Positions 963 to 7,348 of a stretch of 7,348 bases of DNA are shown one piece after another. A program made the position numbers and the translations under genes. Location of the stretch: positions 1 to 7,348 of IMG/VR virus record IMGVR_UViG_3300007141_000001. One strand, 5' to 3'. The notes under the pieces were generated by a model, which was not told the DNA's origin, searched no databases, and saw only the letters and a list, made by a program, of their open reading frames with translations. How positions within the stretch are numbered: the stretch's first letter is position 1; every line of letters begins with the position of its first letter. The stretch comes from a virus.

Positions 963-1769
963 TCAGTTCCCTTTAAGTAATTCTTTAAACTTCCCTGCAC
1001 TTCCAAACACATTAGATAAAAGTCCTTCATACGTTTTATTCCATTCTTTGACACCTTCTGCTATCGCCTTCTCTTCTTTCTTATCTCCGGATTGATCAAG
1101 CAATCCGCGATAATTAAACACAAGAGGCTGTAACAATTCCTCGCTATCTAAACGGCGCGCATAGTCCATCTTCGGCGGTTGCCATTTCCCAAAGTTCTTT
1201 GAGAAATCAACAACACCGCCCTTTGCCACATATTTGGAAACATAATGCGCAACGTCTGCCGAACTCGTCGGACGTTCCAACCGATTCCGGCCAAACTCTT
1301 TAAACCAAAACTCATGCCACTCGTACCGCGACATGAGTTTGTTAAGATCATTCGTCGGGGCGGAAACCACTACATGAAAGTGCAAACGGCCGTCTTTGTG
1401 AAATTCGGTCCCACGCGCCCATTGCAGGCCGTAGTGATCAACCTTTGACCACCGCCTGCCATAAACCTCTGTATTAATCCTGTGAACAAAGTAGCGAAAC
1501 GCTTTATCTGCGGCCTCCGGGTGCATGCCCCCTGTGCGGCCATTCGCCCGGTACGGCGTGAACATAAGCGTCCAGAATTGATGCCAGTTACCCCGAGCCA
1601 GTAAATCCCCGTATGCCTGCGCCGATTGCGCTTGTAAGCTGGCTGAAGCAAAAAGCTGTGAATCATCCGTAAACCGTTCATGCGATCCGTCCACCTGCAT
1701 ACATCCAGTCAAGGCCCAGACGCATTGCCAAATCCTCAAACAAATCCGGCTGGATAAACTCTTGCTCAC
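963..1769 (-). CDS. Rolling-circle replication initiator, HUH endonuclease superfamily (pII-equivalent)
   Basis: Motif I is FWTLMFT, motif II (HUH) is LHFHVVVS, and motif III with two Tyr is AHYVSKYVAKGG (YxxKY as in phiX174 A protein YVAKYV). The track start at 1769 is GTG and overlaps the upstream ORF by 92 nt. The ATG at 1700 (MQVDGSHERF) is the more likely start. Confidence 0.85.
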   Translation of the reverse strand: MSKSLSSRICLRIWQCVWALTGCMQVDGSHERFTDDSQLFASASLQAQSAQAYGDLLARGNWHQFWTLMFTPYRANGRTGGMHPEAADKAFRYFVHRINTEVYGRRWSKVDHYGLQWARGTEFHKDGRLHFHVVVSAPTNDLNKLMSRYEWHEFWFKEFGRNRLERPTSSADVAHYVSKYVAKGGVVDFSKNFGKWQPPKMDYARRLDSEELLQPLVFNYRGLLDQSGDKKEEKAIAEGVKEWNKTYEGLLSNVFGSAGKFKELLKGN

Positions 1770-1950
1770 TCACGCCCGCTAGTTGCTTAGCCGTTTCGTG
1801 TGCATCCTTTGACGACTTACCGCGATCCCATCGATCCCGATACCAGAACCAATAGTTATCTCGTTTCTCTCCAGTTACTAAGCCCCGGTAAATCCGTGGC
1901 CGGTAACGTCTGCGAGGTATCGCCCCGCCATTAACGCTTAGCTGTGTCAT
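1678..1950 (-). CDS. Hypothetical 90-aa basic, Trp-rich protein; first gene of the minus-strand operon
   Basis: ATG is preceded by GGAG 9 nt upstream. The N-terminal half is R/W-rich (RRRYRPRIYRG...YWFWYRDRWDRG) and is followed by a helix-like ETAKQLAGVSEQEF. It overlaps the Rep start. Confidence 0.55.
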   Translation of the reverse strand: MTQLSVNGGAIPRRRYRPRIYRGLVTGEKRDNYWFWYRDRWDRGKSSKDAHETAKQLAGVSEQEFIQPDLFEDLAMRLGLDWMYAGGRIA

Positions 1951-2038
1951 TGGTCTAACTCCGTTCCCCCAGTTCCCCTAGATATTCCGGCTCTTCTCTG
2001 CCTAGGGGAGAACAGAGAAAAACCGGACTACCTTCAAC
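1951..2038. promoter_or_regulatory. Divergent control region between the minus-strand operon and the repressor-like gene, with interleaved inverted repeats
   Basis: IR-A is tcccctag (1974-1981) / ctagggga (2002-2009). IR-B is ccggctcttctctg (1987-2000) / cagagaaaaaccgg (2013-2026, 12 of 14 complementary). A direct repeat gttcccc occurs twice (1963-1978). I could not place convincing -35/-10 hexamers. Confidence 0.5.
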
Positions 2039-2395
2039 ATGCGTCGAAAGTGGAACATTTATAAACGATTGTCTACCCAATCGTCAACAGGTGTTTTCGT
2101 GAGTACCCAAGAAAGGCTAATCAATGCCCTTTTCGAAAAATTTCCCCAACTATCCGAAACCGCCATTGCAAGAAAATGCGGTTTATCAATCGCAAGATTT
2201 AGTAACTACAAACTTGGAAAAAGAAAGATGGATATAGATGCTGTAATTGGCTGTGCACAAGTACTAGGTTGGAACGTACAAGCTACCGTTACCTCTCATG
2301 AAATCGAAATCGCAGAAACAAACCGCGTCAAAAACCTATGGAACATGATTGCCTCTAGCATAAAAGACAAAACCCAAATCCCGATTCACGCCTAA
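2039..2395 (+). CDS. HTH (XRE/cI-like) transcriptional repressor candidate
   Basis: Helix-turn-helix-like LSETAIARKCGLSIARFSNYKLGKRKM. It is the only plus-strand gene and is divergent from rep, as with rstR/cI-type regulators of temperate inoviruses. The ATG at 2039 has no SD, so the GTG at 2099 (AGG 9 nt upstream) is an alternative start. Confidence 0.6.
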   Translation: MRRKWNIYKRLSTQSSTGVFVSTQERLINALFEKFPQLSETAIARKCGLSIARFSNYKLGKRKMDIDAVIGCAQVLGWNVQATVTSHEIEIAETNRVKNLWNMIASSIKDKTQIPIHA

Positions 2396-2400
2396 CCCCC

Positions 2401-2440
2401 GGAGTAGTTACTCAACAGTAGGTTTCGTAACTCCACCTCA
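2401..2440. repeat. Conserved stem-loop motif, copy 1 (GTTACTCAAC-N5-GTTTCGTAAC-N5-CTCA)
   Basis: Core at 2407-2431. The stem is agttac/gtaact, with a symmetric TC/TC internal loop, AAC/GTT pairs and apical agtag. It starts 6 nt after the repressor stop. Confidence 0.7.
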
Positions 2441-2590
2441 TCGCTTCGTGCTTGCCCGTTGCCGACGATGAAGCGCGCCGACAACCCGGCAAGCCCTCAA
2501 ATCAACACCCCAAAGCCGGAAACAAAGAGCAAAGCCCTGCATTTGCGCTTTTGTTCGCTCTAGACCGCTCACAAAAGCGCCCATAGCCCA

Positions 2591-2629
2591 GCGGTGTTAC
2601 TCAACGAAAAGTTTCGTAACACCGCCTCA
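2591..2629. repeat. Conserved stem-loop motif, copy 2
   Basis: Core at 2596-2620. A perfect 10-bp stem gcggtgttac/gtaacaccgc, the same TC/TC internal loop and AAC/GTT pairs, apical gaaaa. It lies 189 bp from copy 1 in the same orientation. Confidence 0.7.
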
Positions 2630-2939
2630 CTGGCTACAACAAACCTCCCTGCAGACCCTCACCAAAAGCAAAAGCTGCACAGTTGAGAATTAGTTGCAAT
2701 AAAAACGCTCGCTAGCCGTCGTTTTTCCCTTCGCAGCTACCTACCTACTCGCCAAGGGATAGAAATCGATTCTAGGTAAGTTTTAGGCCCCTTCTGAGCC
2801 TCTTTCCAACCTTGGTAACTCCCTGAAGCCCGAACCCCTCAAGAGCAGCTCTCCCGAGAATCCAACCTTGCTGAGAAATTGATGCCCTACCGCGCGGCGA
2901 TTCCGTGGGACCCTGACCCACGAAATCGCCAAAAGCGAA

Positions 2940-2989
2940 GGGTTGGGTTGGGCTGGGGGCTTGGGCGGAATTTGGGCCATAGTATGGGG
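2940..2989 (+). other. G-quadruplex-forming run on the plus strand
   Basis: GGGttGGGttGGGctGGGGGcttGGGcGGaatttGGGccatagtatGGGG. The first four tracts have 2-nt loops. It is followed by C6-TA-C6-T5 at 3003-3021. Confidence 0.6.
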
Positions 2990-3081
2990 TCATGCTAAGC
3001 AACCCCCCTACCCCCCTTTTTCGCGCCACCTGTTTTGCAAGGATTTACGCCCTAATCAAGGAATGAATATTAACGGTTTCT

Positions 3082-3098
3082 TAACGTATTTCACACGG
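3082..3098. repeat. Left arm of a 17-bp perfect inverted repeat (taacgtatttcacacgg)
   Basis: It is the exact reverse complement of 3584-3600. Confidence 0.9.
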
Positions 3099-3256
3099 CA
3101 GAGACTTTATCTCACAAATCCGGTGGACACATCTGCGAAGCTAGTTACGGTTGCAGTAACGGTGTGCCACGTTCTGCAATTCGTGCTCCATTGCGCCTGT
3201 CCTCTCGACGGGCAACGGTACGTACCTTACTCATTTCGTTTGGGTGTTCTCCTCGC

Positions 3257-3392
3257 ATTCCCTTTGTAGTCTCAGCCGGGGACTTCGCCTCACGCACCGC
3301 CTTAACGTAGAACTTGTCTTGAACACCGTGCCAAAAATTCCCTTGTAGTCTCAGCCGGGGACTTCGCCTCACGCACCGCCTTAACGTAGAAC
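3257..3392. repeat. Tandem direct repeat: 57-nt (3257-3313) and 56-nt (3337-3392) copies separated by 23 nt
   Basis: Both copies read attccctt(t)gtagtctcagccggggacttcgcctcacgcaccgccttaacgtagaac. They are identical except for one T indel. The flanks after each copy are weakly similar (gaacacc / aacacc), suggesting an ~80-bp duplicated unit. Confidence 0.9.
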
Positions 3393-3546
3393 CTCTAACA
3401 CCTTACCCCTACTCTTTTCTTGCTCCAGTGACCCTAGGGAGCCCCCTAGCGGTTTGATGGTCCTGTACCTGCTAGTCAATGGCGAACCACTCCAAAGACC
3501 CTACTGCTAACCACCTCTTACACCTCCTTAAAATCGCCTTTTTTTC

Positions 3547-3576
3547 AGGGTATGCACATTTCTGTACACTTGTCAA
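3547..3576 (-). promoter_or_regulatory. Candidate sigma70-type promoter reading leftward into the ORF-free region
   Basis: Minus strand: TTGACA (3576-3571), 18 nt, TACCCT (3552-3547). About 20 nt downstream lies a perfect SD, TAAGGAGGTG (3530-3521). Confidence 0.35.
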
Positions 3577-3583
3577 CCCCCGA

Positions 3584-3600
3584 CCGTGTGAAATACGTTA
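3584..3600. repeat. Right arm of a 17-bp perfect inverted repeat (ccgtgtgaaatacgtta)
   Basis: It is the exact reverse complement of 3082-3098. The arms enclose 485 nt that include the tandem repeats. Confidence 0.9.
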
Positions 3601-3640
3601 TGCCTTTTAGCAAAAACCGTGCCAACTTCAAAAGCGGCCC

Positions 3641-3665
3641 AAAATGCACAAGCCTTGCGCATTTT
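3641..3665. terminator. A-tract/T-tract flanked hairpin, bidirectional terminator-like
   Basis: aaaatgcacaa-gcc-ttgcgcatttt. The single mismatch is A.C on the plus strand and becomes G.U on the minus strand. Confidence 0.3.
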
Positions 3666-3889
3666 CTAATCCGCATTTGAGCTGGCAAAAATCAACATCC
3701 AAAGCAAGAGCAAAAGCCCGCTGCTTTAAGACCTCCTCCCACTGAAGCTGGGGTTAGATAATTGCTTAGCACATCTTCCCGCTGAAAAGCGGTCTTCAGC
3801 GCGCAAGACGGCAGCATTAGCTAGCAAGTTATCCGCAACGCGCCAAGCGTTCATAACATCGGAACGTTTTAACATTCAAGCATTTAGCC

Positions 3890-3908
3890 TCATCCGCTTA
3901 GCGGATGA
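3890..3908. other. 8-bp hairpin tcatccgc-tta-gcggatga
   Basis: Perfect complementarity read directly. Part of the hairpin cluster at 3641-3974. Confidence 0.6.
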
Positions 3909-3944
3909 TGGAAGATTCATGCACGCGGAACGAAGAGCGCCACC

Positions 3945-3964
3945 GTAGGGGGCCAGCCCCCTAC
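3945..3964. other. GC-rich 8-bp hairpin gtaggggg-ccag-ccccctac
   Basis: Perfect stem, enclosed by a second helix cgcgg (3923-3927) / ccgcg (3969-3973). No U-tract on either strand. Confidence 0.6.
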
Positions 3965-4000
3965 ACCCCCGCGGATCGATCTTTCAGTATCCAAATTCAA

Positions 4001-4028
4001 AGGCGCATTAATTTTTATTATCTAAACA
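4001..4028 (+). other. Degenerate dif-like (XerC/XerD) site, candidate attP
   Basis: AGGCGCATTAA-TTTTTA-TTATCTAAACA compared with the remembered proteobacterial dif consensus DBBBCSBATAA-TRTAYA-TTATGTHAANT. The XerD arm matches 9/11, the centre 4/6 and the XerC arm 8/11. No integrase is encoded. Confidence 0.3.
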
Positions 4029-4056
4029 TTATCTAGGATATTAACTTTTATTATCT
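4013..4056. repeat. AT-rich iteron block: ATTATCT x3 (4017, 4028, 4050) and ttttattatct x2 (4013-4023, 4046-4056)
   Basis: Spacings of 11 and 22 bp (helical phasing). It lies immediately downstream of the zot stop. Candidate origin or Rep/host-factor binding region. Confidence 0.5.
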
Positions 4057-4059
4057 CTT

Positions 4060-5127
4060 TTAGTTTAAACGTGGTCCCAAACTAGATACTCTACGTGGAT
4101 GTTCACTACTGCTACGATTATTCCGTTCTTCTCCATAAGGGTTATACACAGGGCCACGACTTGCCAATGTTCTGCATTGGGCTAGTCCAATCTCATACTT
4201 CGTTCCTTGCTCTGTAATGCATGTGCAACTGTGATCTTTCCAGTTACCACTACCATCTAAGCCCTGCCCAGAAGACATACAGAATAATTCAGGATCTGAA
4301 GCAACTGACCGATCATCAAAAACCGGAGCCGTCCAAGGTGCCGCTGGAATCCTGGGTAAATGATCTTCTATATAGTCTGCTGTGGTTTCCCATCTCTTTT
4401 CTTTTTCTTCTTTTTTCTTGGCCGCATAATCAAATGCAACATCTGTAGGCATTATCTTCTGTTGCGTTTCGATTTTCTCATCTTTACTCATACCACTACG
4501 AACCTGCCAAATCACATAAGCCAGTAATAACCCTGCAATAGCAAATAACATCATTGCGCGTTTAGCTCTAGAAGAGATTGTTCTCTTTACTGTATGAATC
4601 TCTGCCGATTTATACAGTCCGTAACACTCTTTTGGATAAACCCACGTTTCATGATCCTCACAGGCTAATGCGCGATCACTCCGCACATTATCTATAACCC
4701 GGCTACGTCTATAAACAATGGCCGATTCTTTACCATTTTCTCTAACCAAATGTTCATGCAATCCGACCAGTGCTCTGATATTGGCATGGATTAAAGCGGG
4801 CGATTGAGTTATTAGAATTAATCTAATTCCCTCATGCCGGATAGTTTCCATTGCTTGGATATAAGCCGGTACCGCTCCCGAAGCTGCCCGGAAAAACCGT
4901 TGCGCTTCGTCCACTACCAAAATTGCGCCAGATGGCAACTCTTCCCATTTAGTAGGATCTGGAAAATCCAGAACACCCTCAATTGCGATGTCTGCTAAGT
5001 TAGATACAAATACCTGCTCATTTGATGCAATTGCCTGCTTGATATACCACACTGCCCGCAGTGTCTTGCCGTTGCCAGGCACCCCAGTCAGTAGGGTAAT
5101 CGAGGCCGTTTTAGCAATCGCGCTCAT
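4060..5127 (-). CDS. zot: Zot-like / pI-like morphogenesis ATPase
   Basis: N-terminal Walker A GVPGNGKT, Walker B ILVVDEAQ, a central TM (AMMLFAIAGLLLAYVIWQV) and a Cys-containing periplasmic C-terminal domain. The position after the pVI-like gene is canonical. Confidence 0.85.
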   Translation of the reverse strand: MSAIAKTASITLLTGVPGNGKTLRAVWYIKQAIASNEQVFVSNLADIAIEGVLDFPDPTKWEELPSGAILVVDEAQRFFRAASGAVPAYIQAMETIRHEGIRLILITQSPALIHANIRALVGLHEHLVRENGKESAIVYRRSRVIDNVRSDRALACEDHETWVYPKECYGLYKSAEIHTVKRTISSRAKRAMMLFAIAGLLLAYVIWQVRSGMSKDEKIETQQKIMPTDVAFDYAAKKKEEKEKRWETTADYIEDHLPRIPAAPWTAPVFDDRSVASDPELFCMSSGQGLDGSGNWKDHSCTCITEQGTKYEIGLAQCRTLASRGPVYNPYGEERNNRSSSEHPRRVSSLGPRLN

Positions 5128-5130
5128 TTC

Positions 5131-5153
5131 AATTTGTCAAGTCTTGACAAATT
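5131..5153. promoter_or_regulatory. 23-bp palindrome aatttgtcaag-t-cttgacaaatt, beginning 4 nt upstream of the zot start codon
   Basis: Perfect 11-bp arms. The related motif tttgtcaagac recurs in a second palindrome at 5195-5210, which overlaps the pVI stop. Each palindrome contains TTGACA on the minus strand; the first also has it on the plus strand. Confidence 0.5.
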
Positions 5154-5202
5154 TCTATTTTCATGATACGAGAATTTCAAGTACATCATTTCTCAGTCTT
5201 TG

Positions 5203-5508
5203 TCAAGACTTCACGAAAAAGATTTTTTTCACCATGATCAAAGTCATGAAGGAAACCATAATACTTGCAGCTTTGTTTATACCTAGCAAATTAAACCAGC
5301 ATTGCCATGCGGGCGGTATTCCATTCCATGCATTCGTTGCATGATCAATCAGTGGCTGGATAATCATTTCATTGGTTGCAATTAATATCCCAAGACGGCC
5401 CAAGAAACTTACCACAATCTGCACAAGATACATTTGTGCAAAGCGGACTATCCACGGCCCTAATACAGCTAGGAGGGTGGCTAATACTGGAATAGCAGGC
5501 AATGCCAT
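5203..5508 (-). CDS. pVI-like minor coat / membrane protein
   Basis: 101 aa and very hydrophobic with multiple TM segments. A strong SD GGGAGG lies 7-8 nt upstream, inside the end of the pIII-like gene. It sits between the pIII-like and pI-like genes as in Ff. Confidence 0.7.
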   Translation of the reverse strand: MALPAIPVLATLLAVLGPWIVRFAQMYLVQIVVSFLGRLGILIATNEMIIQPLIDHATNAWNGIPPAWQCWFNLLGINKAASIMVSFMTLIMVKKIFFVKS

Positions 5509-7174: not shown

Positions 7175-7215
7175 GTAATTAGATAAGTAATTGGTTCAAT
7201 TACTTATCTAATTAC
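7175..7215. other. Perfect 19-bp stem / 3-nt loop hairpin (candidate packaging signal or complementary-strand origin)
   Basis: gtaattagataagtaattg-gtt-caattacttatctaattac, checked base by base. The arms carry TTATCTAA, also present in the 4013-4056 iteron block. Confidence 0.5.
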
Positions 7216-7231: not shown

Positions 7232-7266
7232 GTAATAAAGGGAGTTTATAAAACTCCCTTTATTAC
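7232..7266 (-). terminator. 16-bp stem hairpin spanning the circular junction, 6 nt downstream of the coat gene stop; intrinsic-terminator-like
   Basis: gtaataaagggagttt-ata-aaactccctttattac. The inner GGGAG/CTCCC core is followed by TTTATTA on both strands. A strong terminator after gene VIII is typical of Ff-type phages. Confidence 0.6.
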
Positions 7267-7348
7267 GCTTGCTCACCGAGGTTTGAGCAAATTAGCTGCC
7301 CGAATGGCCCATAACACCACGGCAAAGGCAATTACCAGCCCGATTACT
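7250..7348. repeat. Terminal direct repeat, copy 2 (identical to 1-99)
   Basis: Same 99 nt as the window start. It re-reads the 3' end of the coat gene and half of the terminator hairpin. Confidence 0.95.

Follow-up and report, generated by a model that had tools for sequence, protein, structure and literature searches.

Twin imperfect stem-loops beside the repressor gene of a Xanthomonadaceae-type inovirus: candidates for a hairpin signal of the single-stranded DNA stage

To our knowledge, apart from Ff and a handful of phages like phiLf, hardly any cis signals of filamentous phages (minus-strand origin, packaging and regulatory signals) have been mapped. In the inovirus DNA considered here, two copies of an imperfect stem-loop lie behind a repressor gene, and the question is what role, if any, they play. 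We analysed the whole stretch of 7,348 nt of the record IMGVR_UViG_3300007141_000001 (hereinafter, the window). Its nucleotides 1–99 are exactly repeated at 7250–7348, which indicates a circular genome of 7,249 nt. The window is a circular inovirus genome with a Rep of the Xanthomonadaceae-type family. Protein searches found relatives of its Rep and Zot in Xylella, Xanthomonas, Lysobacter, Luteimonas, Pseudoxanthomonas and Stenotrophomonas, which suggests a member of the Xanthomonadales as a surrogate host. The genes and the elements discussed below are collected in Table 1. Inoviruses package the sense strand of the Rep, coat, pIII and Zot genes. Therefore, the viral (+) strand corresponds to the minus strand of the window. 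Both stem-loops lie inside a 1.66-kb non-coding region (2396–4059) directly 3' of the HTH repressor gene. No reading frame is preferentially conserved in this region, and all six frames gave short matches only.

Table 1. Genes and intergenic elements of the window.
Feature	Position	Strand	Remarks
Coat-like protein	24–254	minus	
Small PHROG-matched protein	259–450	minus	
105-aa protein	573–890	minus	usual position of the ssDNA-binding protein
HUH Rep, PF23343 REP_ORF2-G2P	963–1769	minus	HFHVVV and YVSKY motifs; preceded by a 90-aa ORF
Degenerate operator-like palindromes	2033–2098		2033–2048 TTCAAC-ATGC-GTCGAA; 2083–2098 GTCAAC-AGGT-GTTTTC
HTH regulator	2099–2395	plus	sole plus-strand gene; PHROG HTH and transcriptional-regulator matches
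SL1 (copy 1)	2401–2437	minus	arms GTTAC 2407–2411 and GTAAC 2427–2431; inner AAC/GTT stem; 5-nt loop
Element C	2442–2507	minus	hairpin of about 45 nt (2450–2494) with conserved flanks; directly adjoins SL1
Hairpin A	2545–2580		GCGCTTTTGT-N16-ACAAAAGCGC; directly adjoins SL2
SL2 (copy 2)	2584–2636	minus	core 2596–2620; 10-bp stem 2591–2600 / 2616–2625; outer TAGCC/GGCTA stem (5 bp); asymmetric CCTCA bulge
Zot	4060–5127	minus	
DUF2523 protein	5203–5508	minus	
pIII-like protein, 488 aa	5512–6978	minus	

The motif GTTACTCAAC-N5-GTTTCGTAAC occurs exactly twice on the plus strand, at 2407–2431 and 2596–2620, with 189 nt from start to start. No further match with up to three mismatches was found in the window, and none of 200 dinucleotide shuffles matched. 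A preliminary description of this locus had reported two copies in the same orientation, each followed by N5-CTCA, with a core-adjacent pair that switches from A-T in copy 1 to T-A in copy 2 and an outer stem that is a perfect 10 bp in copy 2 and weaker in copy 1. All of this was confirmed, and the outer stem of SL1 turned out to be interrupted. SL1 begins 6 nt past the stop codon of the repressor gene. The 2×2 internal loop reads TC/TC on the plus strand and GA/GA on the minus strand, the stem core is A/T-rich, and the apical loops (agtag and gaaaa) differ at four of five positions. The 164 bp between the copies contain only short ORFs of 30–48 aa, none of them in a preferentially conserved frame.

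The folding of the two copies was assessed for DNA and RNA against shuffled sequences. As DNA, SL2 folds with −14.0 kcal/mol on the minus strand and −13.6 kcal/mol on the plus strand (z −4.6 and −5.6); as RNA, its z values are −5.0 and −5.8, so that the range over both nucleic acids and both strands is −4.6 to −5.8. The DNA fold of SL1 gives −6.3 kcal/mol on the minus strand versus −4.0 kcal/mol on the plus strand (z −1.8 and −1.05). With z from +0.05 to −1.8 as DNA or RNA, SL1 is no more stable than shuffled sequence. The strand preference of the stem-loops is small (0.4–2.3 kcal/mol), and throughout the genome the minus strand folds better by about 2 kcal per 120 nt for compositional reasons. 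We therefore dropped the folding asymmetry as proof of the working strand, since this signal is partly compositional.

The copies belong to a 52-nt direct repeat (2389–2440 and 2578–2629) with 73% identity, found by a repeat search. Counted from the alignment of this repeat, the arms are identical at 20 of 20 positions, the loop at one of five and the flanks at 17 of 27 (18/32 for loop and flanks together). A recent duplication or a gene-conversion tract is disfavoured, because the 5-nt loop between the arms would have been homogenised too. A larger tandem duplication was also rejected: beyond about 58 nt, the flanks of the copies have no significant similarity. With neutral decay at 56% identity, 20 identical arm positions would be expected with a probability of about 0.56^20, or about 1e-5 by this estimate. 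The contrast between arms and loop points to selection on the arm sequence and not to recent duplication, and no other evidence for such selection is as good. There is exactly one compensatory pair between the copies, and 256 of 500 shuffles reach the same number, which does not separate it from chance. The preliminary description had argued for a functional hairpin from structure conserved while sequence varies. The constraint on the arms, the fold potential and a hairpin at the same position in a relative (see below) speak for this argument; the covariation between the copies, a single pair, is not statistically informative.

We also searched for more copies. The exact motif had no match in viral contigs, and the 34 matches to a relaxed motif lacked outer stems, lay in unrelated contexts and were taken as chance. 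A scan of 185,579 representative genomes of bacteria and archaea gave one match to the motif, with about six expected by chance (estimate). It lies inside a 501-aa ORF, and on these grounds we rejected host repetitive palindromes such as REP. BLAST of the intergenic region against phage and plasmid collections gave no match. A covariance model built from both copies and run over 22 related loci, as the preliminary description had proposed, revealed no further copy. The preliminary description had named a lack of homologous copies in related genomes as refuting its reading, and this applies by half: no sequence-homologous copy was found in related genomes, and the search left a single positional homologue with a different apex. 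The same description had listed a weaker GTTAC-7nt-GTAAC hairpin at 3144–3160. This hairpin is present, and about 0.1 sites of this type are expected by chance in a genome of this size (arithmetic estimate); however, it shares only the GTTAC/GTAAC ends with the stem-loops, and the covariance model missed it at E≤10.

Searches for closer relatives through Rep in viral and metagenome contigs, and through the Rep, repressor and Zot proteins, yielded only one close genome, IMGVR_UViG_3300007042_000002 (hereinafter, L001). L001 is the only close relative in the collections. It is about 75% identical to the window at the nucleotide level (Rep 74%, Zot 85% identical), has the same gene order and measures about 7,186 nt after removal of its own terminal redundancy. 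L001 does not contain the twin-hairpin motif, which is absent from 20 other related loci as well. All relatives besides L001 have at most 69% protein identity and lack both the motif and element C, and element C used as an anchor pattern retrieved only the contig of L001 itself. The repressor gene of L001 is unrelated to that of the window apart from the last 26 nt; therefore, a module at about 1991–2370 has been swapped between the two genomes.

It turned out that L001 carries, downstream of its repressor gene, a homologous hairpin at the corresponding place. In the plus-strand orientation of the window, this hairpin B reads GGCGGGGTTATG-TCACCAA-CATACCCCCGCC. It sits between the conserved hairpins C and A and aligns positionally with SL1, and its flanks align with those of SL1 and SL2 (left CCTAACC..CGG, right CC.CCT..GCTTCGTG). 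According to RNAalifold, SL1, SL2 and hairpin B form a common 11-pair stem, in which both partners of two pairs have changed and still pair (AU/UA/GC and CG/CG/UA). In this stem, 90.9% of the cells are paired versus 30–61% for slid partners. The covariation comes from three sequences, and shuffle controls reach the observed values 28–54 times in 500. On the Rep-sense strand, the apical loop of hairpin B measures 7 nt, and four pairs beneath it lies a single G·A mismatch; the window copies have GA/GA three pairs below a 5-nt loop, on a 3-bp stem. Thus, the window and L001 both keep a hairpin at this position, with a stem that co-varies modestly and a tip that is genome-specific.

The neighbouring hairpins are conserved as well. 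Element C is 90% identical to its counterpart in L001, where it is present in two copies (96% identical, 215 nt apart). RNAalifold gives it 24 pairs, two of them compensatory, and four G·U/T pairs that are possible solely on the minus strand. Its minimum free energy as DNA is −16.0 kcal/mol on the minus strand versus −10.9 kcal/mol on the plus strand. Hairpin A has the same stem in L001 (GCGCTTTTGCC...GGCAAAAGCGC), where it adjoins hairpin B. On the viral strand, L001 has the contiguous order C–SL–A. In the window the cluster is split and partly duplicated: the order is SL1–C–spacer–A–SL2 on the plus strand and SL2–A ... C–SL1 on the viral strand. When folded as Rep-sense single-stranded DNA, the cluster reaches z −4.3 (window) and z −5.3 (L001). 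The region is plastic, with A absent beside SL1 and C absent beside SL2. The loss of A beside SL1 can be explained by a short CGC(C)TAA microhomology, if the sequence comparison is read in this way.

Taken with a probability of about 0.35, our tentative explanation is that the twin stem-loops are a lineage-specific hairpin of the viral single-stranded DNA that is recognised by a protein, has a tandem G·A loop and belongs to the C–SL–A cluster. Such a module would act while the DNA is single-stranded, most likely on the viral (+) strand. We assign this strand mainly because of element C and because tandem G·A pairs are known to be stable, the preference of the stem-loops themselves being small. 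On the viral strand, each copy would read GTTAC-GA-AAC-loop-GTT-GA-GTAAC, that is, a symmetric tandem G·A capped by three base pairs and a 5-nt loop of variable sequence. The cluster would remain folded amid the protein-coated viral DNA, and some protein would bind the stem together with the G·A loop in a sequence-specific manner. Most plausibly, the cluster would belong to the signal for making the complementary (minus) strand, or would serve another step at the single-stranded stage. A GC hairpin at 3945–3965 and a block at 2965–3016, both conserved throughout the Rep family and away from the stem-loops, could already cover the packaging and origin functions, and the cluster could then be accessory.

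Known systems offer partial parallels for such a hairpin module. The intergenic region of Ff phages (f1/M13/fd) contains hairpins [A]–[E], which serve as the packaging signal, the minus-strand origin and the plus-strand origin and are each read by proteins. The likeness is that imperfect hairpins, formed by the strand that is packaged, cluster in non-coding DNA between morphogenesis and replication genes. In contrast to Ff, the window motif is duplicated, has a tandem G·A loop and adjoins a repressor gene, which is missing from Ff; the sequences are not similar, no promoter-mimic hexamers were identified in the window, and the function of its motif is a predicted one. In rolling-circle plasmids, the single-strand origin (sso) is a strand-specific, structured, non-coding stretch of 150–300 nt, whose sequence evolves fast while the hairpins are kept and which is specific to the host, not to Rep. 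By analogy, this would fit a cluster common only to the window and L001; however, motifs like RS_B or CS-6 of sso were not identified in the window. In phiLf and phiLf-UK, a cluster of four stem-loops (SL1–SL4, about 120 nt) serves as the origin and packaging signal, with separable nick, Rep-binding and packaging hairpins, some of them dispensable (bioRxiv 10.1101/2023.12.30.573655). The window resembles phiLf-UK in being a Xanthomonadaceae-type inovirus with a run of adjacent stem-loops, but the cluster of phiLf-UK lies inside gene II, whereas that of the window is in a non-coding region. BLASTP found no significant similarity between the two Rep proteins beyond the common HUH and tyrosine motifs, and element C does not preserve the CTTG nick motif of phiLf-UK: the window has CTTG, but L001 has TTTG.

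Several other identities were rejected. The packaging consensus of Xanthomonas inoviruses, as given in the preprint on phiLf-UK, is a hairpin of 20–26 nt whose GC stem of 7–8 bp contains GGX(A/-)CCG(C/T)G and whose loop of 6–10 nt has T and C conserved. A scan in both orientations gave no hairpin-context match in the window, including at or near the stem-loops, whose core is A/T-rich. For XerCD dif-like attP sites, we looked for 28 bp with XerC and XerD arms around a 6–8-bp centre, as in phiLf, XacF1 and CTXphi; the best site in the window matched 15 of 22 arm positions and was not at the stem-loops. A search for a tRNA-like attP in the region was negative.

The main rival explanation is a duplex operator, since CTCAAC, a half-site of the operator of the repressor family, occurs within the core. 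According to it, the adjacent HTH repressor would bind the 25-bp imperfect palindromes as auxiliary operators and act by a roadblock or by looping with promoter-proximal sites. This is suggestive, but we consider it less likely than the hairpin explanation above. The repressor likely starts at GTG 2099 (98 aa), since homologues begin with MTTQEKL, and it is truncated compared with the 152–174 aa of the homologues. Four phages or prophages (L045–L048) have repressors of the DUF3693/XRE type that are 63–71% identical to it, with a near-identical HTH segment. A perfect CTCAAC-N4-GTTGAG palindrome precedes their repressor gene by about 70 nt, and the gene start bears a second site, GTCAAC-AGGT-GTCGAG. 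In the window, the sites at these canonical positions match at 9 and 8 of 12 positions, and the stem-loop core, with CTCAAC-N5-GTTTCG (a perfect first half-site and the inner GTT of the second), equals or beats them with 10/12. This favours an operator, as does the best ungapped match of SL1 in the genome, which falls on the site at 2079–2103 (16/25; shuffle p about 0.02). Only the window has the motif, and the sole part swapped relative to L001 is the repressor module; the spacing of 189 bp is, arithmetically, 18.0 helical turns. However, the spacer is one base longer than in the operators (N5 instead of N4), the right half-site is wrong at two positions, and with four spacings allowed, chance alone would give about one 10/12 match in a 7-kb genome (arithmetic). 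An operator leaves unexplained the Watson–Crick pairs of the long extra stems outside the 17-bp site (nine consecutive in SL2, five in SL1), and a homodimer site is not expected to hold the same asymmetric TC/TC deviation twice. No promoter consensus was found at or near the stem-loops on either strand. The copies lie downstream of the gene, and none of the homologous loci has a comparable site there or the GTTAC...GTAAC motif. A resemblance of SL2 to the HTH-coding segment 2178–2206 (24 of 31 alignment columns) is probably due to chance: the shuffle p is about 0.04, and the L001 hairpin gives a similar spurious match. It would be very unlikely, in our estimate, that the stem-loops are structure-specific targets of the repressor, in which a single-stranded hairpin or a cruciform presents the CTCAAC half-site by the tandem G·A platform. 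If this were true, the repressor would act directly on the single-stranded stage, for example by blocking complementary-strand synthesis of a superinfecting genome. We know of no prior description of such superinfection immunity in inoviruses.

The stem-loops may also work in RNA, which we regard as unlikely, either as a hairpin of the 3'-UTR of the repressor mRNA (plus strand; a stabiliser or a decayed terminator) or in a Rep-sense non-coding or antisense RNA over the 3' end of the repressor gene. GA/GA in RNA is a standard sheared tandem, SL1 begins just past the stop codon, and the four conserved G·U-type pairs of element C on the Rep-sense strand are more typical of RNA. In L001, hairpin B is followed on the repressor-sense strand by TTTTGCTT, which resembles a terminator tail, and the minus strand of the window has weak terminator-like sites at 2538–2526 and 2327–2311. 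On the other hand, hairpin B was not called as a terminator in our scan, the window has just as many terminator-like sites as shuffling predicts, and no promoter consensus feeds either strand. The scan called no intrinsic terminator at either copy on either strand; both copies lack a T-run (a U-tract in RNA) and end in the tails CCACCTCA and CCTCACTG. The RNA fold of SL1 does not surpass that of shuffles, Rfam 15 gave no match at 2396–2640 even at E≤1, and a terminator or stabiliser has no need of two copies with identical arms. That the copies have no present function, being relics of duplication or rearrangement in a recombination-prone region or a short selfish palindrome inserted twice, is likewise improbable. 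The plasticity of the region, including the two copies of C in L001, would agree with this, as would the absence of the motif from every other genome searched, the thermodynamic weakness of SL1, the truncation of the neighbouring repressor and the degeneration of its canonical operators. The identity of the arms is hard to reconcile with neutral decay, however, and L001 keeps a hairpin at the same position with compensatory changes. No multi-copy family was seen in the bacterial and archaeal genomes, where the only match is the one inside the ORF.

The preliminary description had also pointed to HUH enzymes and IS200/IS605-type systems. HUH enzymes read imperfect hairpins, the phage encodes an HUH Rep, and the copies stand in direct orientation, as do the hairpins with conserved irregularity in IS200/IS605 (IS608) and REP/RAYT systems. 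The analogy was not supported, and we find a Rep nick or termination site or IS200/IS605-type ends highly improbable here. The difference in the loops leaves no conserved nick motif, and the motif is absent from L001 in spite of its closely related Rep. Two working nick sites 189 nt apart would release a minicircle in each round of replication. Only the 164 bp lie between the copies, with no Y1 transposase, there is no multi-copy family as in REP/RAYT, and the enzyme of the window is a replication initiator. The non-coding block conserved with the Rep family lies elsewhere, at 2965–3016. On the Rep-sense strand, this block reads GGGGGGTAGGGGGGTTGCTTAGCATGACCCC, with GGGGGGTAGGGGGG..CTTAGC(A/T)TGAC as the conserved form. 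It has relatives in seven of the related loci (L001, L002 and L004–L008); in distant relatives it adjoins Rep, and in L002 it separates Rep from the gene that follows.

Inoviruses normally carry hairpin signals of this kind in their intergenic regions, and the twin hairpins are one of several such signals here. They are a new sequence family, known from one genome and one divergent positional homologue. Together, the window and L001 give separable candidates for cis signals: the C–SL–A cluster, the family-wide GC hairpin and the origin-like block conserved with Rep. If the stem-loops are a protein-recognised single-stranded DNA signal with a tandem G·A loop, this phage group would gain a new recognition motif, which would also aid the annotation of related prophages of Xanthomonadaceae, plant pathogens included. 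Should they be operators or relics, the result would be routine. The only matches to Rfam 15 in the window were a chance match of MIR848 to a long hairpin at 3607–3702 and a weak snoRNA match.

Distant members of the family defined by Rep, the HUH replication initiator, share a conserved non-coding block that ranks first among the candidates for the plus-strand origin. In the Rep-sense reading, the block appears as GGGGGGTAGGGGGGTTGCTTAGCATGACCCC...CCCAAATTCCGCC. It is present in L001, the sole close relative, and its identity in L002 and L004–L008, which are more distant loci, is 78–84%. The window carries CTTAGCATGAC where the relatives have CTTAGCTTGAC. In L002, the counterpart of the block sits between Rep and the next gene. 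A 13-bp hairpin adjoins the block in the window. The L001 counterpart of this hairpin is perfect and has 14 bp (AGCGATTTTGTGGG / CCCACAAAATCGCT); the two versions differ by several two-sided changes, and pairing is kept.

The GC hairpin is a cis element common to the whole family. L049 and L051 carry it right after TraX/Zot, with 97% identity across 32 nt, and L004 has it with 91% identity. A hairpin resembling it lies where Rep ends in L002. It is possibly a packaging signal or an operon-end signal.

Coordinates of the features in the window and in L001
Feature	Window	Strand	L001	Window sequence
Rep ORF	963-1769	-		
90-aa ORF	1678-1950	-		
Repressor ORF, listed start ATG 2039	2039-2395	+		
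Repressor ORF, start GTG 2099	2099-2395	+		
Repressor HTH-coding segment	2178-2206			
SL2, aligned part	2591-2620			
Element C, two copies			1-69 / 216-284	
Near-palindrome	2762-2777		108-126	GAAATCGATTCTAGG
Hairpin beside block	2897-2931			GGCGATTCCGTGGG-loop-CCCACGAAATCGCC
Origin-like block	2965-3016, reaching ~2940			
17-nt inverted repeat	3082-3098 / 3584-3600			TAACGTATTTCACACGG
53-nt direct repeat	3261-3313 / 3340-3392			
Long hairpin	3607-3702	-		
Sigma-70-like promoter consensus	3688-3661	-		
GC hairpin	3939-3970			GTAGGGGGC-ca-GCCCCCTAC plus flanks
Zot-side palindromes	5133-5151 / 5199-5217		4821-4838 / 4888-4905	TTTGTCAAGTCTTGACAAA
Two perfect hairpins	7175-7215 / 7232-7266			

Element C, the conserved hairpin adjoining the first of the twin stem-loops (SL1), occurs in L001 as two copies with 96% identity, 215 nt apart. 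In the window, the twin stem-loops are spaced similarly, by 189 nt, and the parallel suggests that hairpin modules have been repeatedly duplicated and lost in this region. The second stem-loop, SL2, can be aligned with gaps to the HTH-coding segment of the repressor gene (24 identities in 31 columns, shuffle p~0.04). This likeness is probably due to chance; a spurious match of comparable score was obtained for hairpin B, which lies at the homologous position in L001.

Homologues of the repressor point to a GTG start downstream of the listed ATG. The 60 nt upstream of this GTG correspond by homology to the operator/promoter region in related phages. The repressor of the window is without the hydrophobic C-terminal extension present in the 152–174-aa homologues. 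A near-palindrome that looks like an operator is kept in L001 as CCTAGGAATCGATTCTAGG within unalignable surroundings, and a terminator scan rated the L001 version as terminator-like.

The non-coding region also contains a perfect 17-nt inverted repeat with arms separated by 485 nt. At the corresponding positions, L001 has a matching pair of another sequence (ATACGAATTTCA..CGG); thus, the arms have been altered jointly. The repeat could serve for long-range pairing in ssDNA or as paired protein sites. A 53-nt direct repeat (98% identity, 79 nt apart) lies within a conserved non-coding block, with seemingly one diverged copy in L001. The region further includes an imperfect long hairpin of ~96 nt, overlapped by a sigma-70-like promoter consensus. 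The match of this hairpin to the plant microRNA family MIR848 is a chance one; it scored 32.5 bits, and the gathering score is 90.

The 90-aa ORF overlaps the Rep ORF by 92 nt in a different frame, and L001 shares this arrangement. In more distant relatives, its place is taken by several small ORFs that precede Rep. The 90-aa ORF may be either a separate protein or a frameshift.

The 75-nt gap separating the DUF2523 gene and Zot holds two copies of a palindrome with TTGACA-like hexamers inside, and both copies are kept in L001. The copies are a possible promoter/operator of Zot. Two perfect hairpins of 19 bp and 16 bp lie between the pIII-like gene and the coat gene end. No other local structure in the genome is as stable as this one, at about -37 kcal/mol per 120 nt; the hairpins are probably terminators after the coat gene.
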